Shown here: positions 1,562-25,217 of the stretch, in pieces | How the letters are laid out: each line of letters begins with the position of its first letter | How positions within the stretch are numbered: the first letter of the stretch is position 1 | Source of the DNA: a virus | Taxonomy: Duplodnaviria; Heunggongvirae; Uroviricota; Caudoviricetes | IMG/VR virus record: IMGVR_UViG_3300037400_003880 | DNA: 29,267 nucleotides | Reading direction: 5' to 3' (one strand) | The notes under the pieces: model-generated | Seen by the model: only the letters and a program-made list of their open reading frames with translations | Database searches by the model: none | Told to the model about the DNA's origin: nothing | Program-made: the position numbers and the translations under genes

Positions 1562-2689
1562 ATGTTAGAAATTCAGAAGTTCATTCATGCTCATGACAAC
1601 TGGCGGGAGCTTTTGGCTGACGCGCCTTATAACTTGAAGATTTCTGAAGACGACGGTTATGTTCTCTTCAAGTATAATCAGATCAACTCTGACTTCACCG
1701 AGAAGATTTGTCGAGAGGCTCGTGGTCTTATCCTCGATTCCACTAACAACTTCAGCGTTGTAAGACTTGCCTTCGAGAAGTTTTTCAACCTTGATGAACA
1801 GTATGCAGTTCATATCGACTGGGATACTGCGGTCGCAACCGAGAAGATTGATGGCTCCATTATGTCTGTTTGGTATGCCCGCGGCAAGTGGCATTTAAGT
1901 ACAAATGGGACAATTGACGCATTCAAGGCAGAGCTCGGCGGCATCGGCCCGTACAAGACTTTCGGGGAACTCTTTGAGTCTGTATTGCCGCTGTCTACTT
2001 TCGAGAACTACAACAAGCATCGTTGCTGGACTTTTGAACTGGTATCTCCTTATAACAAGGTAGTTATCAACTATCCTGAGACTAAGGTATATCTCCTCTC
2101 TATTCGTGATATGTATTCTCTTGAAGAGCTCGACCTTGAAGCAGTAGAAATGATTGCAGATACTAACGGGATTACTGTACCTAAGCGTTATGACCTTAAC
2201 AACGAAGCTGACTACCGTCAGTTGGTTGAGCAGATGCCCGAAGGTCACGAAGGTATTGTTGTTAGAGATGCAATGGGACGGCGTGTGAAGATTAAGACTC
2301 TCCTTTACTTTCAAATGCATAAGGCTAAGAACAACGGAGTAATCACTTTGGAACGTATCGTTGATTTAATCAGAGCAAATGACCACTATGAGTTCCTCTC
2401 TTACTTCCCTGAGTATCAGTCTATTTTTGATAACATTGCTGAACAAATGACTGTTGCAAACCATCGAGTAACTGCAATCAAGGGGGTAGTAGAAAGATGG
2501 AAGATGGAGCATCAGTTTGTAGGTGACGTGCGTGCGCAGCGCAAGTATTTTGCTCAATATGTAAGGAAGGAAAACTTCGCGCCATTATTATTTGCAGAAT
2601 ATGATGGGAGACTTGACACTTTGCTTCAAAATATTACTACTCCTAAGTATATTTCGTTGTTTCATATTGTTTTACCGGAGGTTAGATAA
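1562..2689 (+). CDS. rnlA: T4 Rnl1-like ATP-dependent RNA ligase
   Basis: Nucleotidyltransferase motifs: ATEKIDGS (I), TFELVSPYN (III), EGIVV (IV), RVKIKT (V); LFKY, CREARGLILD and KFFN near the N-terminus. Confidence 0.9.
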   Translation: MLEIQKFIHAHDNWRELLADAPYNLKISEDDGYVLFKYNQINSDFTEKICREARGLILDSTNNFSVVRLAFEKFFNLDEQYAVHIDWDTAVATEKIDGSIMSVWYARGKWHLSTNGTIDAFKAELGGIGPYKTFGELFESVLPLSTFENYNKHRCWTFELVSPYNKVVINYPETKVYLLSIRDMYSLEELDLEAVEMIADTNGITVPKRYDLNNEADYRQLVEQMPEGHEGIVVRDAMGRRVKIKTLLYFQMHKAKNNGVITLERIVDLIRANDHYEFLSYFPEYQSIFDNIAEQMTVANHRVTAIKGVVERWKMEHQFVGDVRAQRKYFAQYVRKENFAPLLFAEYDGRLDTLLQNITTPKYISLFHIVLPEVR

Positions 2690-2988
2690 TGGGATAGGAA
2701 ATTAGAAATCTATTAGAATCAGCTTCTTCAGTCATGTGGGAGCTGGTTCTGTGTCATCATAACAGGTATGACTTATTTAATAACTCAAAAGATGTTCTTC
2801 TCATGGAAGAATTAATAGATATTTTTCGTCATTATGAAATTGAGCAATATAAAGTTACTTTGGTTCCTTTTCAATATAATGAAATTTCACCTTATGTAAG
2901 CGTAATTGGAAATGTTTCTTGGGTTGATAAGAAAGGACAGCTCAAAGCTATTCATGGTTATAATATGGGGATTCATATAATTAATTGA
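2689..2988 (+). CDS. hypothetical protein with in-frame TAG at codon 3
   Basis: GGAGGT RBS; ATG overlaps the ligase stop (TAATG); ATG GGA TAG GAA... is in frame with ORF 2734..2988. Confidence 0.6.
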
Positions 2989-3013
2989 CTTTTCTGAAAA
3001 AATATGTTATAAT
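2985..3013 (+). promoter_or_regulatory. sigmaA-type promoter
   Basis: TTGACT-N17-TATAAT. Confidence 0.85.
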
Positions 3014-3046
3014 ATTTATAGAAAACAGAAAAGGAGTTATCTAATA

Positions 3047-3802
3047 ATGACCTATTCTAAAGAAGAAATTTTATCTATTGTCAGAGATTTTCTCGGAGAT
3101 AATCCTACTGGAGTGTATGCGCCCAGTTTGGATTATGAATATGGCATTTCTGATTTGCCCGCAGCGAGTCAGCTGAATGTTGATGGAGTATGGACTATTG
3201 AGGAAGTCAATGGATTCAGCATTTATCGCGGTGCAACAAAGGTGGTAATTGTTCCGTATAAGAGTGATTATGTCATCAAACTTAATATTACAGGTACATA
3301 CCTTACTGAAGATGAGTGCAAAGAGGTAGGGTTTGAATATCCATACATTGATCGTGTTTCTAAGCAGGATATCCTCGATGAAGAGATAGCTCTTTATGAG
3401 AATGTCGGCGATGAACTCAAAGCTTTCATTAAGCCGAATATCTTTGTTGGGGTATATAATGGTATTCCAGTATATATTCAAGAGAAAGTGTTTACAACAT
3501 ATGAGTATACTGAATGGACTATCAGTCAAAAATTTTGTCAACAGACACAGCGTCATAAGCAGTTGACGAGCAAACTTGCTGAAAAGACCATTCCTGCGGG
3601 ATGGCGCTCAAAAATCTTCCCCGAGGCTTTTATCTCCGATATGATTCTTGCATATGGAGTAGTATATGCTTGGAAAATTCTTACACAAATTTCTGAAGCA
3701 GGTATTTCTGATTTGAATTATGGTAACTTCGGATACGATAAGAATGGATTACCATGTCTTATTGATATTGGAGATTTCTGTGAAGAGGAGTTCTTTTGTT
3801 AG
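3047..3802 (+). CDS. protein kinase-like fold protein (to TAA 3853 if TAG is sense)
   Basis: RGATKVV, YVIKL, catalytic-loop-like SDLNYGN, LIDIG; paralog of 14843..15601. Confidence 0.65.
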   Translation: MTYSKEEILSIVRDFLGDNPTGVYAPSLDYEYGISDLPAASQLNVDGVWTIEEVNGFSIYRGATKVVIVPYKSDYVIKLNITGTYLTEDECKEVGFEYPYIDRVSKQDILDEEIALYENVGDELKAFIKPNIFVGVYNGIPVYIQEKVFTTYEYTEWTISQKFCQQTQRHKQLTSKLAEKTIPAGWRSKIFPEAFISDMILAYGVVYAWKILTQISEAGISDLNYGNFGYDKNGLPCLIDIGDFCEEEFFC

Positions 3803-3841
3803 GACGTTCATTTTTATGACACAGACTGGACAGTCAATAAT

Positions 3842-3870
3842 TTGACTTTCTAAAAGAAATATGATATAAT
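3842..3870 (+). promoter_or_regulatory. sigmaA-type promoter
   Basis: TTGACT-N17-TATAAT. Confidence 0.85.
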
Positions 3871-3898
3871 ATTTATATAATAAAGGAGGGCAATACAA

Positions 3899-4024
3899 AT
3901 GGTTGATGGTTTTGCAATGTATGTGCAGGTTGAAGAACTTTATGATGAAGATGTATATCAGGCTCGTCTTGACTATGAAGATGGCTCTCTGGAAAATAAA
4001 GATGGAGGTTTGAGTATGACTTAA
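3899..4024 (+). CDS. 41-aa acidic peptide
   Basis: AAAGGAGG RBS after promoter; MVDGFAMYVQVEELYDEDVY... Confidence 0.6.
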   Translation: MVDGFAMYVQVEELYDEDVYQARLDYEDGSLENKDGGLSMT

Positions 4025-4194
4025 TGGGTAAGGAGAGGGAAAATCGTTCTTATAATAAAGAGGATATTAAGAACAGGCGTGATAAGAATAACGCCAAACG
4101 TAGGGAAAAGCGTGAGCGTTCACAACCTGAAAGTAAGAATGATTACAGAAGAAGAAAATAGCATGACAGAGAAGAATCCCAATGGGAATTTTAA
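4024..4194 (+). CDS. basic small protein with in-frame TAG (4159-4161)
   Basis: TAATG coupling; MGKERENRSY...RRRK*HDREESQWEF then TAA just before the next RBS. Confidence 0.55.
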
Positions 4195-4214
4195 TTAAAA
4201 AGGAGAATTATATA

Positions 4215-4535
4215 ATGGCAAAACAGGTATTTAAATGGGGACAGTGGAATGAGCTTGCGAAGGCAGTGGGTGTAAATATGCCCAAGCCGCAAGAGACCAA
4301 TAAGGCTAAGTTTAAGGTTCAGCAGGAGAAGTTTGCACGCTGCCGTAAGTGCGGTGGTCAGATGCATTATCTCAAGGGAACCAATGTTCTTATTTGTGAA
4401 AATGATATCGAGGTTGAAAAGACTTTCGAGAATGAAGATGGTACAACTACTGTTAAGACAGTAAAGCAGACTTGTGGTAATATCAATCTTGTTGATAAGG
4501 AATACCAGTCTTATGCCCGTTTTCTGTTTGAATAA
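4215..4535 (+). CDS. Zn-ribbon protein
   Basis: AAGGAG RBS; CRKCGG...ICEN...TCGN. Confidence 0.7.
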   Translation: MAKQVFKWGQWNELAKAVGVNMPKPQETNKAKFKVQQEKFARCRKCGGQMHYLKGTNVLICENDIEVEKTFENEDGTTTVKTVKQTCGNINLVDKEYQSYARFLFE

Positions 4536-4553
4536 TTAAGGAGGAGTTAAGTA

Positions 4554-5114
4554 ATGAATAATTATAAGTGTCCGTTTTGTGGTAAGACTTATACCAGCCC
4601 TGTTGCAATGGGTGACTGTGCTCAGCGCTGTAGCATTCGTGTAGCTAAAGAACAGGCTGATCAGGAGGCTATTCGTGCAGCTCGGAAGGAAATTGATACA
4701 GCATACAAGCTTTTGCAGGATGCAATTAATACTTATCGTAAGGCAGGTGGCGAAGATAACATTCAGGTTCATATGACTATTTCTGATAAGATTGTTGGAG
4801 ATGGGTTGGATATTTCTCTAAAGCCTAAGCAGGAGAATATTTCTTTCTCTAAGACAGACGTGCCTAATAAGGCGGCATTTAATCCTTTCGCAAAGGCGAA
4901 GAATCAGAACTTTGAGTCCTTCCTGAAGGATACTCTTGATATTAAGGAACCTATGCTTTCTAAGTGCAGAGAGAAGACTTCTGAAGAGGAAGAGCTTCAG
5001 AAGGCTATCAAGGAGACAGAAGATGCATACAATAAGATGTCTCCGCAGGAGCGTCAGCTTGCAGATGCAATTTTGTCCGCTATTGCTGAATCTCTTATGA
5101 GAGAGGTTCTGTAA
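4554..5114 (+). CDS. hypothetical protein, N-terminal C2H2/C4-like Zn finger
   Basis: AAGGAGGAG RBS; YKCPFCGKTY...CAQRC. Confidence 0.7.
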   Translation: MNNYKCPFCGKTYTSPVAMGDCAQRCSIRVAKEQADQEAIRAARKEIDTAYKLLQDAINTYRKAGGEDNIQVHMTISDKIVGDGLDISLKPKQENISFSKTDVPNKAAFNPFAKAKNQNFESFLKDTLDIKEPMLSKCREKTSEEEELQKAIKETEDAYNKMSPQERQLADAILSAIAESLMREVL

Positions 5115-5116
5115 TT

Positions 5117-5545
5117 ATGATGAAGCTGAAGAATTCTTACGAGTTTGATTTCTATGGCACGGATGGCGGTGATACCGTCGTCTGCGTTGCCACAGTGTTG
5201 CGTTTTGATGGGAGAATCCATCGTGCGTTTGACCTTGCTGAAAGGGCAGGGACATATGGTAATGGAAGTTTTTGGGCGCGGCAGAAGTTCTCTTTACCAA
5301 AGAAGAAGTTCGTAGGTAAGTGCGTACTGAAAGAGAATGATACAAATGATATTGAAACAGCAAAATTCATTGCTCGCGCGAAAGCACTAAGACAGGCTAA
5401 TGCGGAAATGGCAAACTTCCTTCGCGGCGTTGAAAAGAAGGTTATGACAAGTCTGGATTTAATTCAGACTCTTGAGGATGATACCAGAGATCGTTCAGAA
5501 GGATACGACATCGCGATTAAGGAAAGAATTGGCAAGAAAAAGTAA
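5117..5545 (+). CDS. hypothetical protein
   Basis: 142-aa ORF coupled to upstream gene. Confidence 0.7.
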   Translation: MMKLKNSYEFDFYGTDGGDTVVCVATVLRFDGRIHRAFDLAERAGTYGNGSFWARQKFSLPKKKFVGKCVLKENDTNDIETAKFIARAKALRQANAEMANFLRGVEKKVMTSLDLIQTLEDDTRDRSEGYDIAIKERIGKKK

Positions 5546-5551
5546 TTCAAG

Positions 5552-5581
5552 AAAAGTCAAGCAATAAAATGCTTGACTTTT
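5552..5581. repeat. 12-bp inverted repeat enclosing a -35 element
   Basis: AAAAGTCAAGCA-ataaaa-TGCTTGACTTTT. Confidence 0.7.
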
Positions 5582-5601
5582 TTTATATATTATGATATAA
5601 T
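5573..5601 (+). promoter_or_regulatory. sigmaA-type promoter for the BrxL-like gene
   Basis: TTGACT-N17-TATAAT. Confidence 0.85.
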
Positions 5602-5652
5602 ATATTGTAAGATAAAAAAGAAAGCACTAATTCAAAGAAAGGAATAAGCCCG

Positions 5653-7074
5653 ATGAACAAAGTAAAGAAGTATTTTCCTGAAGCCGCTCTGAATAAGAAC
5701 AAGAACTCCGCAGCTCTTCTTACTTTTCTTGAGCTGCCGGCAGAAGTAAAAAGCTGGATTCTGATGAAGTTCACCGATGAAAAAGGAAGAGTAAATGCCT
5801 ATGGAATTTCTGAATATGTAAAGAGCTATCGTTTGCGTGCAGACGAGTGGAATATTCGCTTGCTTGAGGCTCGCCACTCAAAGAAGGGGACTATTACGCT
5901 TCTTACTAAAGTAAAGATTGAATTTGATTATGCAAATGACCTTATTTGTTTCTCTTTGCCGGAGTATGGATTCCCGAAAAAGCAAAAGGAGGCGCAAGTA
6001 GATTGGAGCGTTGTTTCTGAACAGAAGAAATATCTGTTGACTCCTGATGCAGCTTGGGGAGAAATCACCCTGATGTATGATTGCGGAGTAATTACTATGG
6101 TAAACTTTACTCCTCTTTGTCCTTATACTTTTGATTTGGGCAAGTATAGAGAGGGGCGCAAGAATTTCTCTACTCAAGAGTGGATTGACCTTTTATTGGG
6201 GGCATTGAATTTTAATCCAGAGGGGTTCGAGACTGTAGATCAGAAGCTGACAATCTTGCAGCGGTTCCTTCCTTTCGTGGAAAAGCGTCTTAACACCATT
6301 GAACTTGCAACAAAGGGCACTGGTAAATCCTACTGCTACTCCCAGCTCTCCCCGAAGACTTGGTGTGTGAGCGGCGGCACAGTGACTCGTGCAACAGCTT
6401 TCTACGATATGACTCGTAAGAAAGTAGGCTACTTCGGTCAGTATTCTCAGGTTATTTTTGATGAAGTTCAGACTATTAAGTTCCCGAATCCTGAAGAGAT
6501 TGGAGGTGCACTTAAGTCTTATCTGGAAAGCGGTGAAATTCGTTGTGGCTCTTTCGAGGGAATGTCAGACTCTGGACTTACCCTCGTTGGTAATATCCCA
6601 GTTGGTTCAATGGATACTAAGTCTTCCAATATGTTTAAGACTCTGCCGAAGATTTTCCATGAGTCCGCGCTTATTGATCGCTTTCATGGAATTATCGAAG
6701 GGTGGAAGATTCCTCGTATGAATGAAGATTTGAAGATGGAAGGATGGACACTTTCTACAGATTATGTGGTAAATATGTTTGACCAGCTTCGTGACGAGTT
6801 CTATTATCGAGCAATCGTTGATGAACTTATTGTGACCGAGGGGAAAGCTGATACTCGTAATCTTGAAGCGGTGAAAAGACTGGCAACAGGTTTCCTGAAG
6901 CTGCTCTTTCCTCACGTCACATCTTGTAAGGATATTGATGTTGCAGACTTCCGAGATTATTGTCTTGAGCCGGCGATGAAGATGCGCGGGGCTGTGCTCT
7001 CTCAGCTTCAGCAGCTTGATACAGAGTACGCAGATAAGACTATGCCGACAGTCCACATTTTGGAGGAGGAATAA
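5653..7074 (+). CDS. brxL: BrxL-like AAA+ ATPase lacking the C-terminal Lon protease domain
   Basis: EWIDLLL, LPFVE..NTIELATKGTGKSY (Walker A), VIFDEV (Walker B), LVGNI, SALIDRFHGIIEGWKIP, RNLEAVKRLATGFLKLLFP. Confidence 0.8.
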   Translation: MNKVKKYFPEAALNKNKNSAALLTFLELPAEVKSWILMKFTDEKGRVNAYGISEYVKSYRLRADEWNIRLLEARHSKKGTITLLTKVKIEFDYANDLICFSLPEYGFPKKQKEAQVDWSVVSEQKKYLLTPDAAWGEITLMYDCGVITMVNFTPLCPYTFDLGKYREGRKNFSTQEWIDLLLGALNFNPEGFETVDQKLTILQRFLPFVEKRLNTIELATKGTGKSYCYSQLSPKTWCVSGGTVTRATAFYDMTRKKVGYFGQYSQVIFDEVQTIKFPNPEEIGGALKSYLESGEIRCGSFEGMSDSGLTLVGNIPVGSMDTKSSNMFKTLPKIFHESALIDRFHGIIEGWKIPRMNEDLKMEGWTLSTDYVVNMFDQLRDEFYYRAIVDELIVTEGKADTRNLEAVKRLATGFLKLLFPHVTSCKDIDVADFRDYCLEPAMKMRGAVLSQLQQLDTEYADKTMPTVHILEEE

Positions 7075-7075
7075 T

Positions 7076-7354
7076 ATGTACATTGTAAAATACGGGAAGT
7101 ATGACGATGTAAGAAGGAAAAAGGTAAAGTGTCCCACGTGCAAAACTGTGTATATTCTGGAAGGGGAGGATTACTCTTTTTGTAATGAAGAGTATTACAA
7201 GACCTTCGACTGGCACGGGATGTGTTATAAGAGCATCTACATTGGCGACTGGATCAGCTGGAAGTGTCCTTATTGCAATACTACATATTATACTTTAATC
7301 AAGAAGAAGGGCGCATGGCTTAAGAAGCTGTGGTACAAAATTAAAGGTTTCTAA
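7076..7354 (+). CDS. Zn-ribbon protein (CPTC...CPYC)
   Basis: GGAGGAGG RBS before ATG 7076. Confidence 0.7.
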   Translation: MYIVKYGKYDDVRRKKVKCPTCKTVYILEGEDYSFCNEEYYKTFDWHGMCYKSIYIGDWISWKCPYCNTTYYTLIKKKGAWLKKLWYKIKGF

Positions 7355-7367
7355 AGGAGGAGATAGA

Positions 7368-7490
7368 ATGTTAGTTGTGGTAATTGCAGTTCTTGCAGGA
7401 ATTGGGTTCATTCTTACTGGTGTGATGTGGGCGCTGTGCGTGGCGGCGAGTGACAGTGATGATGAAATGCATCGAGATGACCTCGACTAA
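7368..7490 (+). CDS. 40-aa single-pass membrane peptide
   Basis: AAAGGAGG RBS; MLVVVIAVLAGIGFILTGVMWALCVAA hydrophobic run. Confidence 0.6.
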   Translation: MLVVVIAVLAGIGFILTGVMWALCVAASDSDDEMHRDDLD

Positions 7491-7759
7491 TGCTGTATGA
7501 AGTTTTACTAAACACCCCATATACAAGAGGGAGAAGGGTTGTGAATTCTCCCTCTTTGCAGCTCACGAAAGAATGGGCACTTTCACAGCTCACAGACTTT
7601 CTGGAAGAAAATGAAGAGGAAGTCTTTGAAGAATTTTTATCTGGAGAAATGCAAGAAGATTTTTATGATTCAGCGCTGTATGATTGGTATGTTGAATCTT
7701 CCGACTATGAGATCCGTCCCTATCCAGAGGACGAATTGGATGAAGATGATGAAGTTTAG
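7490..7759 (+). CDS. acidic hypothetical protein (to TGA 7786 if TAG is sense)
   Basis: TAATG coupling; ends on TAG. Confidence 0.65.
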   Translation: MLYEVLLNTPYTRGRRVVNSPSLQLTKEWALSQLTDFLEENEEEVFEEFLSGEMQEDFYDSALYDWYVESSDYEIRPYPEDELDEDDEV

Positions 7760-7782
7760 GACATAACAAATCAGAAAAATAA

Positions 7783-7811
7783 TTGACTTTTCTGGAAAAA
7801 TATGATATAAT
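7783..7811 (+). promoter_or_regulatory. sigmaA-type promoter
   Basis: TTGACT-N17-TATAAT. Confidence 0.85.
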
Positions 7812-7864
7812 ATATATGTAAGATAAAGAAAAGAGCCAAAGCCAACTGAATAAGGAGGAGCTTT

Positions 7865-8005
7865 ATGGGTATGATGATGAAGGTTTTTAAGTCCAAGGCA
7901 CAGGCAGAGAAGTACATCGCAGAGCAGGGCGGCAAGGTGCAGGTCATCTATCAGTGGGATGATATGCGTCAGACCATCGTCAAGACTTATGTCGTAAAGT
8001 TTTAA
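7865..8005 (+). CDS. 46-aa hypothetical protein
   Basis: AAGGAGGAG RBS; MGMMMKVFKSKAQAEKYIAEQGGKV... Confidence 0.6.
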   Translation: MGMMMKVFKSKAQAEKYIAEQGGKVQVIYQWDDMRQTIVKTYVVKF

Positions 8006-8018
8006 GGAGGTATATAGA

Positions 8019-8366
8019 ATGATTTTGGCAAGATATATTTATCATGGAGATATTATGGAGGATCCTATCGAATACTCCTGTGCAGAGGATTTTCTATCAG
8101 ACCTGCTGGAGGATGAAGATATTATTGATTTTCTTAATGAGGCATACGAGGGAATTGATATTCCTTGCGTTGGTACAAAGCCGGCGGGAGATGTCATTTT
8201 TCAGATGTTGAATGGAGATCGCGGCGACCGTCCAAAATGGGACGCTGTCTATGACGATGTACTTCAATCGGAAGTAGAATATGTTGAAGATGAATTGGCG
8301 GCAAATGGTAAAATGATTTATCGTGATTATGAGCTGACTGATACAGACTTTTCCGAGGAGGAGTAA
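8019..8366 (+). CDS. acidic hypothetical protein
   Basis: AAGGAGGT RBS. Confidence 0.7.
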   Translation: MILARYIYHGDIMEDPIEYSCAEDFLSDLLEDEDIIDFLNEAYEGIDIPCVGTKPAGDVIFQMLNGDRGDRPKWDAVYDDVLQSEVEYVEDELAANGKMIYRDYELTDTDFSEEE

Positions 8367-8382
8367 TATCCTCCTCTCCAAT

Positions 8383-8732
8383 GGGGGCGTAATGGTTTCG
8401 ACCGGCGTTTGACCTCTTTATTAGCGAGTAGCTGGCACAGCTTAAAGTGCAACTTAAACATAAACGTAGATTATTCTATAGCTGCCTGAGCTTAAAACAG
8501 TATTGCGCATAGGGAAAACTGTAGCTGACGTAGAAGTACCCGTACTACGCATAATATTCGTCAGAAAGGAAATGAGAAGTGACGCAGCTCATGGGTATCG
8601 TAAGCCGTCTACAGCAACGCCATTTGTTTGTTAGTTGTCATGGTCTTGCCGAAGTTTTACAATTAACTACACTCGTAGAAGGTAAAGAACGAAGATGTCG
8701 GGACAGCAGTTCAATTCTGCTCGCCTCCACCA
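8383..8732 (+). ncRNA. ssrA: tmRNA
   Basis: 5' GGGGGCGTAATGGTTTCGAC; 3' T-arm GCAG-TTCAATT-CTGC and CGCCTCCACCA; G3:U70 pair; tag frame ...GTA GAT TAT TCT ATA GCT GCC TGA (VDYSIAA). Confidence 0.93.
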
Positions 8733-8759
8733 TATAGACTAATAGGAGGACATAATATA

Positions 8760-9287
8760 ATGGAACTGAAAATCTTACCGCAAGAGTATTCGTCAAAGGA
8801 AACGTGTCATAATCATTGGTAGCTTCCTCAGCTTTTTAAGCTCGCTACCTTTGAAGAAGGTACTACTTGCGTTGACTATGGTGGCGGAGCATTCGATACT
8901 TCCGTAAAATTTCTTGAAGAAAAAGGTGTCATGGCTAAGGTGTACGATCCCTACAATCGAGGGGCGGCGCACAATGAAGCGGTGCTATCTTGGGTTGAAG
9001 ATAATGGCGGAGTAGACTATGTGACCAGCTCAAACGTTTTGAATGTAATTAAGGAAGAAGAAGTTAGACTTAATGTACTGCATAATATGTCGCTTATAGC
9101 GAAGCCTAACGCAACTATTTACTTCGTAACTTACGAAGGGAATCGCTCCGGAATCGGGGCTTATAGTGGAAAAGGATGGCAGAATCATCGCAGGACAGCA
9201 GAATATTTAAGCGAGATTAAAGAAGTTTTCCCCGATGCTGTGAAGAAAGGCTCACTTATTATAGCGCATAATCAAAAAAATAATTGA
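8760..9287 (+). CDS. class I SAM-dependent methyltransferase with in-frame TAG (8820-8822)
   Basis: AGGAGG RBS before ATG 8760; motif I VDYGGG, VYDPYN, SNVLNVI; the ORF-track start at 8931 omits motif I. Confidence 0.8.
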
Positions 9288-9312
9288 CTTTTTTAGAAAA
9301 ATGTGATATAAT
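9284..9312 (+). promoter_or_regulatory. sigmaA-type promoter
   Basis: TTGACT-N17-TATAAT; the TGA in -35 is the upstream stop codon. Confidence 0.85.
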
Positions 9313-13123: not shown

Positions 13124-13199
13124 TGCGGTTTAGCCAAGTGGTAAAGGCAATCGGCTCTGACCCGATGACGCATAGGTTCGAATCCTATAACCGCAACCA
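13124..13199 (+). tRNA. trnQ-CTG: tRNA-Gln(CTG)
   Basis: ATCGG-CTCTGAC-CCGAT; U1:A72; CCA. Confidence 0.92.
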
Positions 13200-15878: not shown

Positions 15879-16067
15879 ATGTCGATGTACAAAGCAATCG
15901 AACACGGCAAAGAACATCGCAAGCCGTGGCGCGGAAAAGCAAGGTCAAAGAATATTGACGGAACCTGTCGTAATCACGGGTCGTGTGAGTATTGCAAGTG
16001 CAATCGGCTTCATAAGTTCACCCGTGACCTTGAAGTGGCAAACGCCAAGCTCGATGAATGGAGGTAG
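15879..16067 (+). CDS. small Cys/His-rich basic protein
   Basis: GAGGGTG RBS; CRNHGSCEYC motif; ends on TAG in frame with the next ORF. Confidence 0.7.
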   Translation: MSMYKAIEHGKEHRKPWRGKARSKNIDGTCRNHGSCEYCKCNRLHKFTRDLEVANAKLDEWR

Positions 16068-16073
16068 TCAACT

Positions 16074-16205
16074 ATGTGTGAGAACTGCAAGTATTTCGTA
16101 GATGGTGAGTGCCCCTTCTATGGCAACACTGACCTCTGCATTCAGTATGAGGACGAGTCCGCTAAGTATGATACAGAGTATACTAATGAATGGGAGGGTG
16201 CATAA
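16074..16205 (+). CDS. 43-aa Cys-rich peptide
   Basis: GGAGGT RBS; MCENCKYFVDGECPF...C. Confidence 0.6.
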   Translation: MCENCKYFVDGECPFYGNTDLCIQYEDESAKYDTEYTNEWEGA

Positions 16206-17733: not shown

Positions 17734-17741
17734 AAAAATAT

Positions 17742-17770
17742 TTGACTTTTCTGGAAAAATGTGATATAAT
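17742..17770 (+). promoter_or_regulatory. sigmaA-type promoter
   Basis: TTGACT-N17-TATAAT. Confidence 0.85.
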
Positions 17771-17814
17771 ATATATATAGAGAGTTAAGGAAAAGAGACT
17801 TAAAGGAGGAGCTT

Positions 17815-18012
17815 ATGACCAAGGAGCAAATGCTTGCGTTTCTTGAGCAGTATGAGGACGGCGATGTTATTGATGAGTATGAGCTGGCTCGCTATCAGCA
17901 GTCTATTACTGAAGCTCATGAGCGATTCGTTGAAGAGCTTGAAGAGCGTCAGTATGCTTCTGGTTTCTATGCTCAGCAGGATGTAATCGAGATGTATCGC
18001 CGTGAGCGGTAA
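17815..18012 (+). CDS. small acidic protein, paralog of 15621..15818
   Basis: MTKEQMLAFLEQYEDG...GFYAQQD...RRER. Confidence 0.75.
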   Translation: MTKEQMLAFLEQYEDGDVIDEYELARYQQSITEAHERFVEELEERQYASGFYAQQDVIEMYRRER

Positions 18013-18020
18013 GGAGGTTT

Positions 18021-18437
18021 ATGATGAAAACTAAGTACGTCATCTACGGGTATGAGTTTTCTACGAATGAGAAGGGCGCAGCTCCTGAAGTCTGCCAGTA
18101 TCAAGTTGCAGAAGTCTTCTATGGCGAGCATGATAATGTTACAATGCTTGTTCACTCGGACTTCTCCTTCTGGAAGTCTACGATGAGGGCGAAGGTGTGG
18201 AAGCAAGTTTATCAGGAGCAGGATTTGAATGAGTATCCTCCCGATGCTTTGGCTTACTTAATCAAGGACTTCGATAAGCTGAGCACAGTTCACTGGTACT
18301 TCCTCACAGAGAATGAGTACAATGAGTGGGTTGAATGGGCAAAGGGCGACGGGGCAAAAGAGGTAACAATTTCTAAGATTTACTCGAAGAGCGCCATGGA
18401 TGAGGATTCCGTTTACATAAAGTTCACAAAAAATTAA
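18021..18437 (+). CDS. hypothetical protein
   Basis: AAGGAGGT RBS. Confidence 0.7.
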   Translation: MMKTKYVIYGYEFSTNEKGAAPEVCQYQVAEVFYGEHDNVTMLVHSDFSFWKSTMRAKVWKQVYQEQDLNEYPPDALAYLIKDFDKLSTVHWYFLTENEYNEWVEWAKGDGAKEVTISKIYSKSAMDEDSVYIKFTKN

Positions 18438-18448
18438 CGAAAAAATAA

Positions 18449-18477
18449 TTGACTTTTTCCAAAAAATATGATATAAT
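18449..18477 (+). promoter_or_regulatory. sigmaA-type promoter with upstream TTHACA repeats
   Basis: TTGACT-N17-TATAAT; repeats at 18412, 18423, 18434. Confidence 0.85.
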
Positions 18478-18505
18478 ATATATAGAAAGTGAGGGAAAAG
18501 TTGAT

Positions 18506-18694
18506 ATGGAAAAGCGCTACGAGGTAAGTTGGTACAAGGAATGTTATCCACTCCCTGATGAAGGTGGCAAGAAGATGTTCGATACTCATGAAGCAGCGAC
18601 CATATTCGGTCATAAGATGCGCAAAGCGGGTTATTCCACATGGCTTAGAGTAATGGTCTACGATCCTGACGAGGAGGTATGGTATGAATATTGA
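18506..18694 (+). CDS. hypothetical protein
   Basis: GTGAGGG RBS, ATG 18506. Confidence 0.65.
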   Translation: MEKRYEVSWYKECYPLPDEGGKKMFDTHEAATIFGHKMRKAGYSTWLRVMVYDPDEEVWYEY

Positions 18695-18920
18695 GAAGTT
18701 CGAGGAGATTCTCCGCTGGAAGTATGACAACGGCGTTCACGACTTCGTCGGTAATCTTTCTGGTAACAAGTACCATATCCAGAACCCCTCTGGTAAGATT
18801 CGTGGATATGCGTTGTTCGCAAATGATAAGCTCATTTGTTGCAACACCCGTTTCACCAACGTTGCGTGGAGCCTCTGGGATATTGAATCTGAGGTTGCAG
18901 GAGTTAAGGAGGATGCTTAA
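18684..18920 (+). CDS. hypothetical protein
   Basis: GAGGAGGT RBS. Confidence 0.7.
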   Translation: MNIEKFEEILRWKYDNGVHDFVGNLSGNKYHIQNPSGKIRGYALFANDKLICCNTRFTNVAWSLWDIESEVAGVKEDA

Positions 18921-19114
18921 TGAGATACGCAGTTATTGACTGGTACGAATCTGATGAAGGTGATGTTCTCGGTATTGAGTTGACAAGAGAGGAAGCTGAT
19001 GCTCTGGTGGCGCAGCGCATTGAAGACACCGATGGCGAGTGCGATGTTCAGGTTTACGACAACGAGATGGACAAGGATATTTACTCCATGCTGATGGAGA
19101 ACATCTACGGCTAA
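18920..19114 (+). CDS. acidic hypothetical protein
   Basis: AAGGAGG RBS; TAATG coupling. Confidence 0.7.
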   Translation: MRYAVIDWYESDEGDVLGIELTREEADALVAQRIEDTDGECDVQVYDNEMDKDIYSMLMENIYG

Positions 19115-19134
19115 TGACTACGGAGGTAAAGATT

Positions 19135-19371
19135 ATGGAACTTTGGATCGTACTTGACAGCTTATCTAATGAGCCGGAAGTCTTCTCTGACAGGGGCGCG
19201 GCAGTAAGCTTCGCACTGGAAATTCTTCAGGGTTATCAGGAGCATTGGCAGTTTGAACAAGAAGAGTATGAAGACTCTTGCACAGACATCAGAAACGGAA
19301 AAGACAATTCTGAATGTTGGGGCACTTACCTCGGTGAGTGTGAGGTAAACATTTTCAAAAAGTCTATTTGA
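19135..19371 (+). CDS. hypothetical protein
   Basis: GGAGGT RBS before ATG 19135. Confidence 0.65.
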   Translation: MELWIVLDSLSNEPEVFSDRGAAVSFALEILQGYQEHWQFEQEEYEDSCTDIRNGKDNSECWGTYLGECEVNIFKKSI

Positions 19372-19396
19372 CTTTTTGAGAAAATTATGTTATAAT
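19368..19396 (+). promoter_or_regulatory. sigmaA-type promoter
   Basis: TTGACT-N17-TATAAT. Confidence 0.85.
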
Positions 19397-19432
19397 ATTT
19401 ATAGAGAGTTAAGGAAAAGCCCCTAAAGGAGG

Positions 19433-19708
19433 ATGCTTATGTTTGAGCGTATGTTTCTTATTCAGAAGGTTTCCCGTGCCGGCACTTGCCATGAGGTTCG
19501 AGATAACGAAATCGCAAATGAGCTTCAGGTTATCAACTTCGTAGATTTCTCTGACCTCTATGATTGGGATGATTTCAAGGTCTATGAGATTACGAACCCC
19601 GGCGAAGTTATTCCCCTTATCTACAAAGGTTGGCAGCCTGGTTGCTTGATCGAGTTTACGAATGATAAAGGAGAGGTTGTTCTCTCTGGCTACGGCACTG
19701 ACCACTAA
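19433..19708 (+). CDS. hypothetical protein
   Basis: AAGGAGG RBS; ends GEVVLSGYGTDH. Confidence 0.75.
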   Translation: MLMFERMFLIQKVSRAGTCHEVRDNEIANELQVINFVDFSDLYDWDDFKVYEITNPGEVIPLIYKGWQPGCLIEFTNDKGEVVLSGYGTDH

Positions 19709-19728
19709 GAACCAATAAGGAGAGGCTT

Positions 19729-19992
19729 ATGAGCGAATATATTGATATTGTACGAGACAAGATTACACGAGCTTCTTTTCGTCCCGCAAATCCTAAACAC
19801 TGGATTGTGCGTATTATTCAAGATGACGCAGGTCACATGACCGAGTTTAAGCGGGGCGGCATTCTGACTGAGCATGATGCTCAGAAGTGGGCACGGACTC
19901 TTGTGGAAGATTATCCAAATGCTGTAGAGATTGTTCTCTATGAACTGACGAACGCCGAACTGAATGCATATAAGGCAAAAGGTTGGGCGTAA
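19729..19992 (+). CDS. hypothetical protein
   Basis: AAGGAGAGG RBS. Confidence 0.7.
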   Translation: MSEYIDIVRDKITRASFRPANPKHWIVRIIQDDAGHMTEFKRGGILTEHDAQKWARTLVEDYPNAVEIVLYELTNAELNAYKAKGWA

Positions 19993-20051
19993 GACTTCTA
20001 AAATAGTGATGTAAGGTTGAAATCCCTTGCTGGAGCAGAAAGAGAGTTTAT

Positions 20052-20294
20052 ATGCTGTTTTATGAATCTAAGTTCTGCGATTGCTGTAAAAGAAAACTGA
20101 CACTTCCTTATTACTATGAGCGAGAAGATGGTTGCTACGCTTTTCGAGTCGATACAACTGAGGGTGTAAAATGGATTTGTTCCACTTGCTTGTATGCCTA
20201 CAATATCCTTGATAGGCTCCCCAATGAAAAAGAGCGCTTGATGGATAGAAAATCTCTCATGAAACGGAGAGAACAAGAGAAAAAGTTTAATTGA
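20052..20294 (+). CDS. small Zn-finger-like protein (CDCC...CSTC)
   Basis: 80-aa ORF ending in the next promoter. Confidence 0.55.
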   Translation: MLFYESKFCDCCKRKLTLPYYYEREDGCYAFRVDTTEGVKWICSTCLYAYNILDRLPNEKERLMDRKSLMKRREQEKKFN

Positions 20295-20319
20295 CTTTTC
20301 TGAAAAAATATGATATAAT
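20291..20319 (+). promoter_or_regulatory. sigmaA-type promoter
   Basis: TTGACT-N17-TATAAT. Confidence 0.85.
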
Positions 20320-20479
20320 ATATATAGAGAGTTGAGAGAGAGCAGGAAATCAACTTCCTCTCGATAAGGTTCCAGTGTGAATCCCAAGTTAGGTTTCTGG
20401 AGCTGAGATAATTGGGGATACGGATCGGTGCCGAATCGCCGTGAAAAGGTTCGGTGAAAGTTCCTCTCAACCTTTAAAT

Positions 20480-20557
20480 GCCGGCGTGGCGCAACTGGAA
20501 AGACGCGCGAGCCTCAGAAACTCGATAGTGTGGGTTCGAGTCCCACCGCCGGCACCA
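20480..20557 (+). tRNA. trnL-CAG: tRNA-Leu(CAG) with short variable loop
   Basis: GCCGGCG/CGCCGGC acceptor; Leu-type D arm; loop CT-CAG-AA; variable region only ATAGT; A73; CCA. Confidence 0.8.
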
Positions 20558-20677
20558 GAGGAGTTTGATTGTCCCATGCAATATGGGCGGGAGCCTTCTC
20601 CTTGAACAAAAAGGGCGAACAACGATGCGGCTACAGCATTGAATGTGAGAGGAAGTGCGCATACCTCAAGTGGCACA

Positions 20678-20779
20678 GCTCATGTCAAATCCGTAAGATA
20701 GGTTCGATTCCTATTTTAAGCATTGGAGTGCGACGGGTGATAGGGACGGATGGAGGTTCGAGTCCTCCCATGAGCACTA
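20678..20779 (+). ncRNA. twin-T-arm tRNA-like RNA A
   Basis: GCTCATG/CATGAGC + ACTA; two TTCGA T-arms; internal ATCCGT/ACGGAT stem. Confidence 0.6.
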
Positions 20780-20819
20780 ATTATAACATTGTTTCTTTCA
20801 AAAGTTAGCAAATAAATAT

Positions 20820-20848
20820 TTGACTTTTTTGAAAAAATATGTTATAAT
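20820..20848 (+). promoter_or_regulatory. sigmaA-type promoter
   Basis: TTGACT-N17-TATAAT. Confidence 0.85.
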
Positions 20849-20927
20849 ATATATGTAAGATAAAGAAAAGGGCGGTAAACAAAATGCCCACGTCAATCCT
20901 CTTTTGAGGAAGAAAAGGAGAAAGCGT

Positions 20928-21314
20928 ATGTTTATGGATTTCACTAACGTAGAAGACAAGTCCGTTAAGACTGTAGCTCGTGCGACTGGTGTAGCGGAGC
21001 TTGAAGCGTGGCTCAAGGAGAACTTCGGTGAAGCGAATGTAACTCAGACTGGTTCTGGTGATTTCGCTGTGGCTCTCGGTGAGAAGGGCAACGAGGTTTG
21101 CGTTGAGTTCAGCGTAACTGCCAAGGATGTGTTCGACCGCCAGACTCCCAAGAAGGGACTTGTAAAGGCATTCGATCGTAAGGCGGCAGGTGACAAGTAT
21201 AAGGCAGACCGTGAGAAGGCTGAAGCAAACAAGGCAGCTCGCAAGGCAGTATCCGACAAGAACAAGGCTCGTGATAAGGCAAAGCGGGAGGCTGCGGCAG
21301 AAGCAGAAGACTAA
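20928..21314 (+). CDS. hypothetical protein, paralog family B, Lys/Ala-rich tail
   Basis: AAGGAG RBS; VTAK motif shared with 22092 and 28671. Confidence 0.75.
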   Translation: MFMDFTNVEDKSVKTVARATGVAELEAWLKENFGEANVTQTGSGDFAVALGEKGNEVCVEFSVTAKDVFDRQTPKKGLVKAFDRKAAGDKYKADREKAEANKAARKAVSDKNKARDKAKREAAAEAED

Positions 21315-21440
21315 TTGATTTAAGCGGCACGTGGTTCGGTACGGTTTCTGAATGACCCCGCTATAAAAATGTGGTGTAATTGTAACCGAGGTGCGCCTTA
21401 CCTAACCTTTCATCTTTGATAAAAAACGTTAAGGCAAAAA

Positions 21441-21540
21441 TGACCAGAGAGACTTGGATAGCGACCACTCCCATGAGTGGTAAGTGTGGTTCAATTCCAC
21501 CATTTGGAGTAAGGGCAGGTTCGACTCCTGCGCTGGTCAT
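21441..21540 (+). ncRNA. twin-T-arm tRNA-like RNA B
   Basis: TGACCAG/CTGGTCA closing stem; T-arms GTGG-TTCAATT-CCAC and GCAGG-TTCGACT-CCTGC. Confidence 0.6.
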
Positions 21541-21544
21541 AAAT

Positions 21545-21617
21545 CGCGCCATCGTCTAAGAGGTCAGGACGAGTCCCTTTCAAGGACTAAATGTGGGTTC
21601 GATTCCCGCTGGCGTGA
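21545..21617 (+). tRNA. trnE-TTC: tRNA-Glu(TTC)
   Basis: AGTCC-CTTTCAA-GGACT; no encoded CCA. Confidence 0.9.
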
Positions 21618-21673
21618 TGTCCTTAAAAAATTATGACTGCCGGCACAACTGCCGGAGAAAAGGAGAATGCCAA

Positions 21674-21976: not shown

Positions 21977-22005
21977 TTGACTTTTTTCAAAAAATATGAT
22001 ATAAT
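21977..22005 (+). promoter_or_regulatory. sigmaA-type promoter with upstream TTHACA repeats
   Basis: TTGACT-N17-TATAAT; repeats at 21940, 21951, 21962. Confidence 0.85.
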
Positions 22006-22091
22006 ATATATGTAAGATAAAGAAAAGGACAGAAACCAAAGAGGTTCCGTCCTACGAACCAGACAAAGTCTGGAGAAATGGAGAGTGCTAA

Positions 22092-22457
22092 ATGGCAGAT
22101 ATGGTTGAGAAGGTTCTCCCTGACTACACTGGCATGAAGGTTTCTCAGGTGAAGGCGGCAGTTCGTGCTCAGATTATGGAGGATTTCTTTGAGTTTCTTC
22201 AGCAGAAGTACAACACCTATGGTCAGGTTGCGGCAGGTGAGATTGCTTTCTATGCGGCAACTTTCACTGACGAGGATGGCTTCCAGCACGATGTGCCGGC
22301 AGTAATCAAGGTAACTGCGAAGCCGTTCTATGATTCCGTTGGAGAGAAGGGGCGTAAGACTGAGCCGTATGATGTAGAAGAGGAGATTAAGCAGTTTAAG
22401 CTGGCAAAGGCTGGTCAGGCAACTCGTCATAAGGGTCGCCCGAAGAAGGAGTCTTAA
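22092..22457 (+). CDS. hypothetical protein, paralog family B
   Basis: GGAG RBS; EDGF..D...IKVTAK. Confidence 0.75.
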   Translation: MADMVEKVLPDYTGMKVSQVKAAVRAQIMEDFFEFLQQKYNTYGQVAAGEIAFYAATFTDEDGFQHDVPAVIKVTAKPFYDSVGEKGRKTEPYDVEEEIKQFKLAKAGQATRHKGRPKKES

Positions 22458-22492: not shown

Positions 22493-22828
22493 TCAACCAA
22501 ATTGAATTGTTTCTTCTTCAGGAGAAGTTCTAATTTCATAAGCCTAATCAATTTTGACATTTAGATTGTTAATGGTTTCTTCTAAAGATTGTCCATTAAC
22601 ACTTATGTCTCTTGAGTCAAGAGTGATTTTGTCCCCTACTTCTTGACCGCTTTCTACTTCTTTTAGTACGTAAGTAACAACTCCGTCTTCTAACCTTTTT
22701 TCGAGAGTATATCTGATGTTAGTCCCAGATGAGCCACCGCCGATTCCTCTCAGTCTAGCAAAATATGCGGGATCAATGGTATCATCTTTTCCACGATTTC
22801 GGTTGATATATCTACTCATTTTATTCAC
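22493..22828 (-). CDS. hypothetical (possibly virion-associated) protein; TAG at 22544-22546 read through
   Basis: GGAGGTG RBS; read-through adds QAYEIRTSPEEETIQFG and ends at a TGA adjacent to the terminator. Confidence 0.65.
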
Positions 22829-22979: not shown

Positions 22980-23195
22980 ATGAGAGAAGTAAATTTTTCA
23001 GAAGTTATTAAAGCAGTACGAACATTTGATGAGGCTTCAGAAGTTTTTCTTGATTCTATTGAGAAGAATTTTGGAGAAGTTCCTTAGGAATTGATGAACT
23101 GTTGTTATAAAGTGCTTAATTTAACAGCAGAATTGATGGCATCAGAGGGAATGAATAGAGAAGAAGTGGAAATGAAGATTTTTGAGGGGCGGTAA
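22980..23195 (+). CDS. 71-aa hypothetical protein with in-frame TAG (23085-23087)
   Basis: AAGGAGG RBS; MREVNFSEVIK...GEVP*ELMNCCYK...KIFEGR. Confidence 0.65.
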
Positions 23196-23259: not shown

Positions 23260-23673
23260 ATGGGTGATTTTGAAAATGTGCCGTTGACTGTAACGGAAAG
23301 AAAAATATTGGCAAATTAGGAGTAGCAAAAACGGCAGAAAATTCTTTATAAGATTGGTTATAATACTGCTGGCTGCTATGAATTAACTTTTCCAAATGGA
23401 AAGAAATATATAGGGAAATCAATTAAGTTAGGTCATCGAATCGCAGACCACTTGAGAGAATTAATTCCGACAAATGGTAAGGTTATTAAGAAGTATAGTA
23501 TGAATTGGTATGCAATAGCTGTTAAAGAAAATGAAGGGCGGCTCAATTCCATTAGTGATATTAGAATACGAGGATGGCGGAGTAAGAGTTGTGACATTTT
23601 AGAAAAATAGTTGCTTTCTTCTATTCCAGTAGAAGAGCGATGCAATTATTATAATGAAATTTTTTATGACTGA
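23260..23673 (+). CDS. GIY-YIG endonuclease with three in-frame TAG codons
   Basis: AGGAGGT RBS; GCYELTFPNGKKYIGKSIKLGHRIADH, ILEK*LL, NYYN; TAG at 23317, 23323, 23608. Confidence 0.82.
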
Positions 23674-23839
23674 ATTGATTGAGTTAAAAGAGGGGATGAA
23701 AACAATAGAGTAAATGCCAGATCAAACAACTTATTAACTGATTAAGAGAAATTTAATTAAACGTAATTGGGAAAGTAATTATTAAGGTAATTATAGAGTA
23801 TAATTAAGATTATAATATAGAGTAATTAAAGAAGTAATA

Positions 23840-24100
23840 AAGAGAGAAGAAGAATAGAAGAAAAACAAAAGGAGGACAAAAGGAAAAGAACAGAACGGAA
23901 AGAGGAAGAACGGAAGAAGAACAGAAGAAGAACAGAAGAAGAACAGAAGAAGAAGAAGAACAGAAGAAGAAGAACAAAAAAAAGGAAACGGGATAGAGAA
24001 CGGAAGAAGAACAGAAGAAGAAGAACAGTAATAGAAGTAGTAGTAGAAGAAGAAGAACAGAATAACAGAAAGAATGAGAACGAAAAGGAGTAGTACCTAA
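23840..24100 (+). repeat. polypurine (GAA)n/AAGAAGAACAG low-complexity tract
   Basis: repeated GAAGAACAGAA units; almost no T over 23860-24020. Confidence 0.8.
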
Positions 24101-24280
24101 AGTAATACTATAACTATAATAAAGAGTAATAATAAAGGGAGCCGAGTCTCGTGGGAACCTTACCCCTTAAGCCCTACGAATCCTAAAAAAATAAAGCCCC
24201 TCAAAATCAGAGATAGGGGCTTGGGAATTGGTTTGTTGAAGATGGGGCATATTGGCATCATAACCCACACATTGACGGGT

Positions 24281-24360
24281 TGAAATGTGCGTTAGCAGGA
24301 TGAAATGTGCGATAGCAAGAAATAATGTGCGATAGCAGGATGAAATGTGCGTGGCAACAC
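24281..24360 (+). repeat. four 20-bp tandem direct repeats (TGAAATGTGCGWTAGCAGGA)
   Basis: exact 20-nt period. Confidence 0.8.
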
Positions 24361-24473
24361 AGCAACGAAAAAGTCAAGTAAATAATAAATTAAATAAATA
24401 AGGGGGAGTCAAGATTTTCAAGATACGGCGGCACGAAACCACTTAAAAGTGAACGGGGAGGATAGTCAAGAAT

Positions 24474-24502
24474 TTGACTTTTCTTTCAGTTTGTGATATA
24501 AT
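24474..24502 (+). promoter_or_regulatory. sigmaA-type promoter
   Basis: TTGACT-N17-TATAAT. Confidence 0.8.
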
Positions 24503-24530
24503 TAAGTAAAGAGAGGAGGGAAAAACTACA

Positions 24531-25217
24531 ATGATTTAGTTCGTTTATAGCATAACGATCCAAAAGGAAGGCGATTTCCTGAGCTTTTTGAAGAGTTTTG
24601 ACAAGAAAATAATGATAAATGACAAGGTTATTGACAAAAATAACAAATCAGGCGTGATTCATGGTGAAAACAGTGTGGAAACTATAGTATTTATAGAGAA
24701 ATTAAGTGCGGATGACTTCAAAAGTATGAGAGAACTGTGGAAAAAGATAACAATTGAACGGGAACTATCGTTGGAATACGTGAGAGATGGATGGGTTTGG
24801 TTGCTACCGTTTCAGCAGCTCCACAGCGGTCCAGATCGACCATACAATCAGATAATTAAGCACAATGGCTTACCGACCACGCGCTCCGCCAAGAAGAAGG
24901 ACAAGCCAGATCTTAGGCTAAGAAGGGCAGAAGCCAGAGACTATGGTAGTGTTGAAGAGGGGGACGATCCAGATAGCTCAGCTCAAACAATTCTTGAGGA
25001 GCTACTCAAACCAGAGTGGCTAGGATGGTGGCATCGCCGCTTCATTTATCTTTACCATTATTATGGGAACCATTGCAGTTGTTATAAGGAACGCTTTATT
25101 TATGACGCTTTTATTGCTACTGTTTGGGAGATCTCTAAAGTTATAGGTGTGCCGCCCCTTGATATTTGTGAGATTTATCGCGCGGCGCGCCCCGTTTATA
25201 ATAAACTTTATATGTAA
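24531..25217 (+). CDS. hypothetical protein with in-frame TAG at codon 3
   Basis: AGGAGG RBS; ATG ATT TAG TTC... is in frame with ORF 24588..25217. Confidence 0.7.

Follow-up and report, generated by a model that had tools for sequence, protein, structure and literature searches.

Reassignment of the stop codon TAG to glutamine (genetic code 15) has been described for several groups of gut phages, namely the Lak, crAss-like, Garnet, Amethyst, Agate and Topaz phages, and suppressor tRNAs were detected in only ~40% of the TAG-recoded genomes (Borges et al., bioRxiv 10.1101/2021.08.26.457843). In crAss-like phages, the reading of TAG as Gln was proven by liquid chromatography-tandem mass spectrometry (Peters et al. 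2022, PMC9523058). The phAss-1 group, represented by a gut virome phage of 136 kb, carries TAG in many open reading frames (ORFs), and its recoding was spotted from ORF interruption (PMC10607447). Here we analyse a 29,267-nucleotide stretch of phage DNA (Caudoviricetes; IMG/VR virus record IMGVR_UViG_3300037400_003880), hereafter the window, in which in-frame TAG codons occur in 12 of the 53 curated genes. The window, with genes mostly on the + strand, comes from a large uncultured phage of the gut or rumen whose relatives measure 178-183 kb, and covers the early/middle part of its genome, which is rich in tRNA genes. Its comparison with these relatives indicates that the phage very probably translates TAG as Gln, presumably by means of phage-encoded amber suppressors derived from tRNA-Gln.

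This phage shares with those of Borges et al. the presence of in-frame TAG at Gln positions, a host presumed to use the standard code (genetic code 11), phage-encoded tRNA(CUA) genes (here predicted from relatives), and a scarcity of TAG in the early, code-change-compatible region with dense use elsewhere (in a relative's genome). Unlike them, it belongs to a different, undescribed lineage of ~180 kb that carries two tRNA arrays, a transfer-messenger RNA (tmRNA), RNA ligases and a BrxL-like ATPase; moreover, no gene for release factor 2 (RF2) was seen in the window or in its complete relative, G001. The crAss-like phages (PMC9523058) show the same reassignment, there at the protein level, but are an unrelated group with Bacteroidota hosts. 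phAss-1 also has TAG-interrupted ORFs; its genome is smaller, and no sequence relationship with it was found here (PMC10607447).

Results

TAG codons within intact genes

All 11 TAGs reported by the sequence-only reading were found in place, at 2695, 3800, 4159, 7757, 8820, 23085, 23317, 23323, 23608 and 24537 on the + strand and, as CTA, at 22544 (a minus-strand TAG). Three further in-frame TAGs, at 485, 1244 and 16065, bring the total to 14, and the observation of in-frame TAGs is confirmed. TAG is the only stop triplet that interrupts genes (14 of 14), though TAA and TGA triplets are 2.4-2.9 times commoner on the + strand. The genes concerned are the following:

272..505, + strand: 77-aa gene; TAG 485-487 is codon 72; ends with TGA; AGGAG 7 nt upstream
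974..1285, + strand: 103-aa gene; TAG 1244-1246 is codon 91
2689..2988, + strand: 99-aa gene; TAG 2695-2697 is codon 3; stop TGA inside the next -35 element, of the promoter at 2985
3047..3853, + strand: 268-aa gene; TAG 3800-3802 is codon 252
4024..4194, + strand: 56-aa gene; TAG 4159-4161 is codon 46
7490..7786, + strand: 98-aa gene; TAG 7757-7759 is codon 90; ends with TGA inside TTGACT
8760..9287, + strand: 175-aa S-adenosylmethionine (SAM)-dependent methyltransferase; TAG 8820-8822 is codon 21
15879..16205, + strand: 108-aa gene; TAG 16065-16067 is codon 63; read-through end TAATG overlaps the next start, at 16205
22493..22819, - strand: 108-aa gene; TAG 22546-22544 is codon 92; has a ribosome-binding site (RBS), ATG and terminator
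22980..23195, + strand: 71-aa gene; TAG 23085-23087 is codon 36
23260..23673, + strand: 137-aa GIY-YIG nuclease; TAGs at 23317, 23323 and 23608; Pfam GIY-YIG 23.2 bits (cut-off 22.6)
24531..25217, + strand: 228-aa gene; TAG 24537-24539 is codon 3

The claim that these ORFs are preceded by RBSs held, as an ATG with a Shine-Dalgarno match lies upstream of, and in frame with, every TAG listed by that reading: AGGAGG for the starts at 8760 (10 nt), 24531 (11 nt), 23260 (8 nt) and 22980 (8 nt), and GGAGG for those at 2689 (7 nt) and, on the minus strand, 22819. The ATG at 2689 overlaps the stop of the RNA ligase gene (TAATG), and the next ATG, at 2734, has no RBS; likewise, the alternative TTG start of the last gene, at 24588, has none. 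In the methyltransferase gene, TAG was said to precede the DYGGG motif, and it does so as codon 21, with DYGGG at residues 39-43; the first start available under code 11, at 8931, is downstream of the motif. The predicted ends of the read-through products were also borne out. Read-through of 7757 ends inside the next promoter, at a TGA within its -35 element (TTGACT, 7783-7788), as in the genes 2689-2988 and 8760-9287, while read-through of 3800 ends at a TAA (3851-3853) inside the promoter at 3842-3870. On the minus strand, the extended gene ends at a TGA (22493-22495) located 6 nt before an 11-bp terminator hairpin (22486-22462).

Homology across the TAG codons

A near-identity search of 50,697 phage records gave only tRNA matches and no near match to the window. 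The relatives used for comparison were L003 and L004 (~89% identity in the methyltransferase), L002 and L024 (loci of one 183-kb contig, ~81% methyltransferase identity), L025 (a 68.6-kb contig from a different sample, covering the same region as L024), L029 (a 1.4-kb contig with the minus-strand gene at 71% identity) and the complete genome G001 (IMG/VR UViG_3300031867_000005, 178,685 bp). The latter is collinear with the window over 1.5-25 kb, most proteins being 45-60% identical and the BrxL-like ATPase 81%.

Homology passes 12 of the 14 window TAGs (1244, 2695, 3800, 4159, 7757, 8820, 22544, 23085, 23317, 23323, 23608 and 24537). Homologs ending at the TAGs, which had been named as the outcome that would speak against recoding, were not found: alignments cross 3800, 4159, 8820, 22544, 23085, 23317/23323/23608 and 24537. 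Moreover, the TAG itself is conserved in position at 1244, 2695, 3800 and 8820 in L003 and at 22544 and 23085 in L029. This comparative evidence for TAG as a sense codon is decisive.

The methyltransferase gene provides the most detailed case. Its product matches Methyltransf_23 (E 6.7e-5, below the Pfam cut-off) and phrog_14016 (over residues 10-112), and has 95 homologs, the nearest of which are full-length. Opposite 8820 there is TAG in L003 and L004, CAG in L002 and AAG in G001. Codons 1-57, which are untranslated under code 11, differ by 20 synonymous and 10 nonsynonymous changes from L002 and by 10 synonymous and 2 nonsynonymous changes from L003; this mostly synonymous change, a mark of purifying selection across the TAG, rules out a pseudogene or an assembly error. 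The methyltransferase genes of the relatives, as well as P0182, match database proteins only when TAG is translated as Gln.

Other genes behave similarly. In L003, the homolog of 974..1285 likewise encodes 103 aa and keeps the TAG in place; identity is 96% over the full length, including the 12 codons after TAG. All alignments of the 268-aa gene (3047..3853) pass position 3800 (D-x-HFYD/E), opposite which there is TAG in L003, AAG in L002 and TAT in G001; the L002 homolog has a TAG of its own three codons after this column, and the 16-codon extension shows 2 synonymous and no nonsynonymous changes relative to L003. In the 56-aa gene, L003, L002 and G001 all have CAA (Gln) opposite 4159, in the context DYRRRK-Q-HDREES, and homology reaches the common C-terminus. 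The 98-aa L003 homolog of 7490..7786 has TAC opposite 7757 and an identical end. On the minus strand, P0182 (71% identity, 108 aa) aligns end to end with 22493..22819, and P0183 (41%) covers the extension too; the L029 gene encoding P0182 has TAG at the same codon (92) and a second TAG opposite CAA in the window. The 71-aa gene has a homolog of equal length in L029, with TAG at the same codon and a conserved protein after it; codon 33, Glu in the window, is an extra TAG in L029.

The GIY-YIG gene is 45% identical to G001 160151-160568, a homolog detected by local BLAST, through all three TAGs to a common YYNExFYD C-terminus, and the TAG that G001 carries in this gene aligns with CAA in the window. 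Its 137-aa product, which needs three TAGs to be read through, is present in the window's own database record; a search of 5.8 billion proteins returned only this product. Finally, the 24531 gene and its G001 counterpart (M-K-T-Q(CAA)-Y-V-Y-S-I-T) are conserved from the codon directly after TAG (FVYSIT/YVYSIT), far upstream of any alternative start.

A comparison of coding density, which had been proposed as a check, shows a clear gain in G001, in which coverage by ORFs of at least 150 aa is 38% under code 11, 72.5% if TAG is sense and 42% if TGA is sense; in the window, the gain is small, the curated coding fraction rising from 62.2% to 65.6%. Long-ORF coverage of the window is non-discriminating because TAG is rare in this region. 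A six-frame control for stop-spanning alignments against G001 was not used, as it was confounded by off-frame shadow alignments, and its best-frame version is circular because alignments run past true stops into conserved promoters.

Glutamine as the probable meaning of TAG

The TAG columns were compared on curated frames, the all-frame table being too noisy. They align preferentially with Gln, in support of the earlier assignment: a BLOSUM62 tally over 15 TAG columns gave 62 for Gln, 29 for Glu, 25 for His, 14 for Lys and -1 for Tyr. An invariant position is column 141 of the methyltransferase, which is TAG in L002 and L003 and Gln in all 95 homologs, two of which are confirmed to be translated by table 11. 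At codon 21 of the same gene, TAG (window, L003 and L004) interchanges with CAG (L002), and the L002 TAG at codon 24 (Gln24) faces CAG/CAA in the window. The second L029 TAG of the minus-strand gene, opposite CAA in the window, is its codon 59. The earlier statement that Gln suits the sequence contexts thus stands in part: CAA or CAG is found opposite 4159, 8820 and 24537, and other residues opposite 3800, 7757, 23317, 23323 and 23608. The non-Gln partners (Tyr, Lys, Ser, His, Thr and Glu) are confined to variable positions, and most of them (Tyr, Lys, Ser and Glu) are one step from TAG. Gln is the best-supported meaning of TAG, and almost certainly the right one.

Suppressor tRNAs in relatives

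Two tRNA(CUA) genes, SupA and SupB, are located in the first tRNA array of L024 (1986-2057 and 2132-2204), with the same coordinates in L025. They lie ~11 kb upstream of an RNA ligase gene whose homolog in the window occupies 1562-2689. This pair of Gln-type genes, which in a close relative shortly precedes the region collinear with the window, would explain why the window itself has no suppressor. Both have U1-A72, A73, the D-arm GCCAAGCGGTA(A)AGGC and the loop CUCUAAC, as in phage tRNA-Gln genes, and the SupB anticodon arm is that of the L002 tRNA-Gln(CUG) save for G36A. The nearest window tRNA to SupA and SupB, with 68-71% identity, a near-identical D-arm, U1-A72 and A73, is the following:

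13124..13199, + strand: tRNA-Gln(CUG), called by ARAGORN and Rfam

A pattern scan found a third Gln-type tRNA(CUA) in the IMG/VR fragment G002, which shares short DNA stretches with the window, several of them at repeated promoters.

The Escherichia coli suppressor supE (glnV) is a tRNA-Gln with the anticodon CUA that arose from tRNA-Gln(CUG) by G36A, and suppresses only weakly, in laboratory settings or particular strains, in cells that use code 11. SupB shows the same single change relative to tRNA-Gln(CUG). Unlike supE, the suppressor tRNA here is duplicated, phage-borne and serves a systematic use of TAG.

Pyrrolysine decoding was rejected on the basis of tRNA type, no search aimed at pyl genes such as pylS and pylBCD having been made, since 'Pyl' is the ARAGORN label for any CUA anticodon and the tRNAs of the relatives are ordinary Gln-type cloverleaves. 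Another tRNA-like gene, at L024:4720-4792, has a two-base 'anticodon' (aa) according to ARAGORN and is 71% identical to SupB. The G001 tRNA region (132.7-137.7 kb) contains a 300-nt tRNA-free gap, between tRNA-Lys (UUU) and tRNA-Gly (UCC), where L024 has the suppressors.

Uneven use of TAG

TAG is rare in the window, at 2.2 per 1000 codons or 6.8% of Gln-type codons, and the genes for the large enzymes (RNA ligase, BrxL-like ATPase and nucleotidyltransferase) have none. In G001, TAG is sparse where the genome is collinear with the window (0.4-1.2 per 1000 codons) and dense in the first 50 kb (12-24 per 1000). This gradient appears to match the published early/late pattern, and a link of recoding to late expression, as put forward by the sequence-only reading, is plausible.

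TAGs cluster towards gene ends: of the 14 in the window, 12 fall within the first or the last fifth of their gene (p=6e-4; per gene, p=0.003), and TAG is codon 3 in two genes. TAG is 12.6 times denser in the GIY-YIG gene than elsewhere in the window (p=0.003), and in L003, homing-type nuclease genes hold 15 of 22 in-frame TAGs (p=4e-6). Of these L003 genes (3007-3894, 1223-1945, 13086-13838 and 18643-19383), three are of the GIY-YIG type, and the other, of 295 aa, has paralogs in G001; their TAG density resembles that of the TAG-rich part of G001, unlike that of the surrounding early genes. The placement of TAG fits either a tolerance of incomplete suppression or a gating role.

Other features of the window

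The main features outside the TAG-bearing genes are the following:

1562-2689: T4-type RNA ligase
5653-7074: BrxL-like ATPase
8383-8732, + strand: phage tmRNA (Rfam RF00023, 108 bits, E 1e-41; also called by ARAGORN)
10720-21618: 15 tRNA genes (ARAGORN, Rfam)

A PD-(D/E)XK endonuclease and an RlaP-like nucleotidyltransferase are also encoded. The curated map of 53 genes excludes ORF 13930-14433, which crosses two tRNA genes; the minus-strand ORF 21987-22430 was rejected as a shadow of the real + strand gene 22092-22457.

Numerous small genes are preceded by repeated promoters of the form TTGACT-17-TGnTATAAT, nine of which were found in 1-10700 at an 11-of-12 match. In three genes the stop TGA is embedded in the -35 TTGACT of the next promoter (2985-2990, 7783-7788 and 9284-9289). 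The tmRNA gene is full-length and directly 5' of the methyltransferase gene, a position kept in L002, L003 and L024; the tag peptides given by ARAGORN vary among the relatives and seem unreliable, except for ANYSIAA in L003. Relaxed ARAGORN joined 13432-13468 and 13940-13979 as one tRNA, called Asp GUC, the halves being parted by a 471-nt insert with the PD-(D/E)XK endonuclease ORF. The genes at 12300-12788 (+), 26209-26664 (+) and 27474-27896 (-) are paralogs of one family of no known function, all of which match G001 168252-168756 and a second G001 copy. From ~27.4 kb, the right end of the window turns to minus-strand genes and to a higher G+C content (0.48-0.54).

Over a 20-kb stretch, L024 and L025 agree in gene and tRNA content and in coordinates, yet their public gene calls use different codes and the call lengths disagree (for example, 374 aa vs 494 aa, and 249 aa vs 261 aa); code 15 has thus been applied inconsistently to this lineage.

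Discussion

In the most probable scenario, phage amber suppressor tRNAs with the anticodon CUA would have arisen from tRNA-Gln, the loop CUCUAAC replacing CUCUGAC, and would be charged, presumably, by the host's glutamine-charging system. TAG would then be read as Gln, and only TAA and TGA would serve as true stops. The methyltransferase, the GIY-YIG nuclease and ten more genes, which are mostly small and of which none has a known function, would be made at full length only once the suppressor tRNAs are present. A delay or gating of expression by TAG may follow from this.

Several observations weigh against this interpretation. Long-ORF coverage of the window, 27% under code 11, reaches 39% if TAG is taken as sense, but the same treatment of TGA gives 45%. 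Two of the TAGs lie beyond the reach of homology: no homolog covers 485, the L003 alignment stopping short of it because the L003 locus ends there, and the gene 15879..16205 has no homolog, its read-through being deduced from the code alone. Relatives have Tyr, Lys, Thr or Glu opposite five window TAGs (3800, 7757, 23317, 23323 and 23608), all at variable positions. As the sequence-only reading had noted, there is no tRNA(CUA) in the window according to ARAGORN (normal and relaxed) or Rfam, and the suppressors attributed to this phage are predicted from a relative at ~80% protein identity. Furthermore, complete G001 has no tRNA(CUA), release factor or Gln/Glu-tRNA synthetase detectable by Rfam, relaxed ARAGORN, a motif scan or release-factor and class-Ic synthetase profiles; this fits the ~40% detection rate of suppressors reported by Borges et al.

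It is highly unlikely that the suppressor is charged by another synthetase and inserts a residue other than Gln, such as Glu, Tyr or Lys, at TAG. Such residues do occur in relatives opposite window TAGs (Tyr at 7757, 3800 and 23323, Lys at 3800 and 8820, Glu at 23608), and the TAG at codon 33 of the L029 71-aa gene stands opposite Glu in the window; if the host makes Gln-tRNA indirectly (non-discriminating Glu-tRNA synthetase and GatCAB), incomplete amidation could also yield Glu. However, the non-Gln partners occupy variable positions and are mostly single-step neighbours of TAG, whereas TAG falls on a methyltransferase column in which all 95 homologs have Gln, and the Gln column at 4159 is common to three lineages. 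The substitution tally (Gln 62 vs Glu 29 and Tyr -1) and the Gln-type acceptor stem, discriminator base, D-arm and anticodon arm of the relatives' tRNA(CUA) point the same way. That the phage uses the standard code, with TAGs that reflect nonsense mutation or misassembly in decaying genes, is in our view a marginal possibility at best. Decay is common among homing endonuclease genes, the 5.8-billion-protein set contains no close homolog of the GIY-YIG gene, and code 11 was used to call the genes of a short, nearly identical Logan contig. Nevertheless, TAGs are found at identical positions in independent samples and diverged relatives (1244, 2695, 3800 and 8820 in L003; 22544 and 23085 in L029), the reading frames beyond them are open and conserved, all 14 interruptions are TAG despite the greater abundance of TAA and TGA triplets, and suppressor tRNAs are present in relatives.

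There is likewise very little probability that TAG acts here mainly as a stop, the TAGs being leaky or conditional terminators that give short products early and a minority of extended ones later. The bias of 12 of 14 TAGs to the first or last 20% of genes is in line with such a role, as is the rarity of TAG; six TAGs are no more than 17 codons from the terminal TAA or TGA, where stopping early would cost little of the protein, and release factor 1 of the host is presumably present, with no phage RF2 seen in the window or in G001. On the other hand, the methyltransferase, the GIY-YIG nuclease and the two codon-3 genes would be useless without efficient decoding, yet they are under purifying selection; the relatives place TAG at an invariant catalytic-domain Gln of the methyltransferase, and the first 50 kb of G001 uses the codon at 12-24 per 1000. 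Leaky termination is a matter of degree inside the explanation by Gln-inserting suppressors and no separate mechanism.

A more tentative extension, on the doubtful side, is that TAG in the early/middle region is a graded translational gate rather than a free synonym of CAG. The idea comes from where the TAGs are found: as codon 3 in two genes, ahead of the catalytic motif of the methyltransferase, within a homing nuclease gene, or in the final 10-15% of small genes. Until tRNA(CUA) accumulates, the gated genes would give nothing or a slightly shorter isoform, and later the full product. If so, TAG would constitute a built-in timer on single early-region genes, beyond the known early/late split.

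Gut phages are well known to recode TAG to Gln, and this locus leaves the general understanding of phage recoding as it was. In practical terms, genes of the contig and of its relatives must be called with code 15: with code 11, the methyltransferase has no SAM-binding motif, the GIY-YIG nuclease is gone, and ~10 small genes are truncated or mis-started. The lineage itself, tRNA-rich, ~180 kb in size and undescribed, would be added to the phages that recode TAG to Gln, and would offer a clean example of suppressor tRNAs derived from a phage's own tRNA-Gln by one anticodon change.

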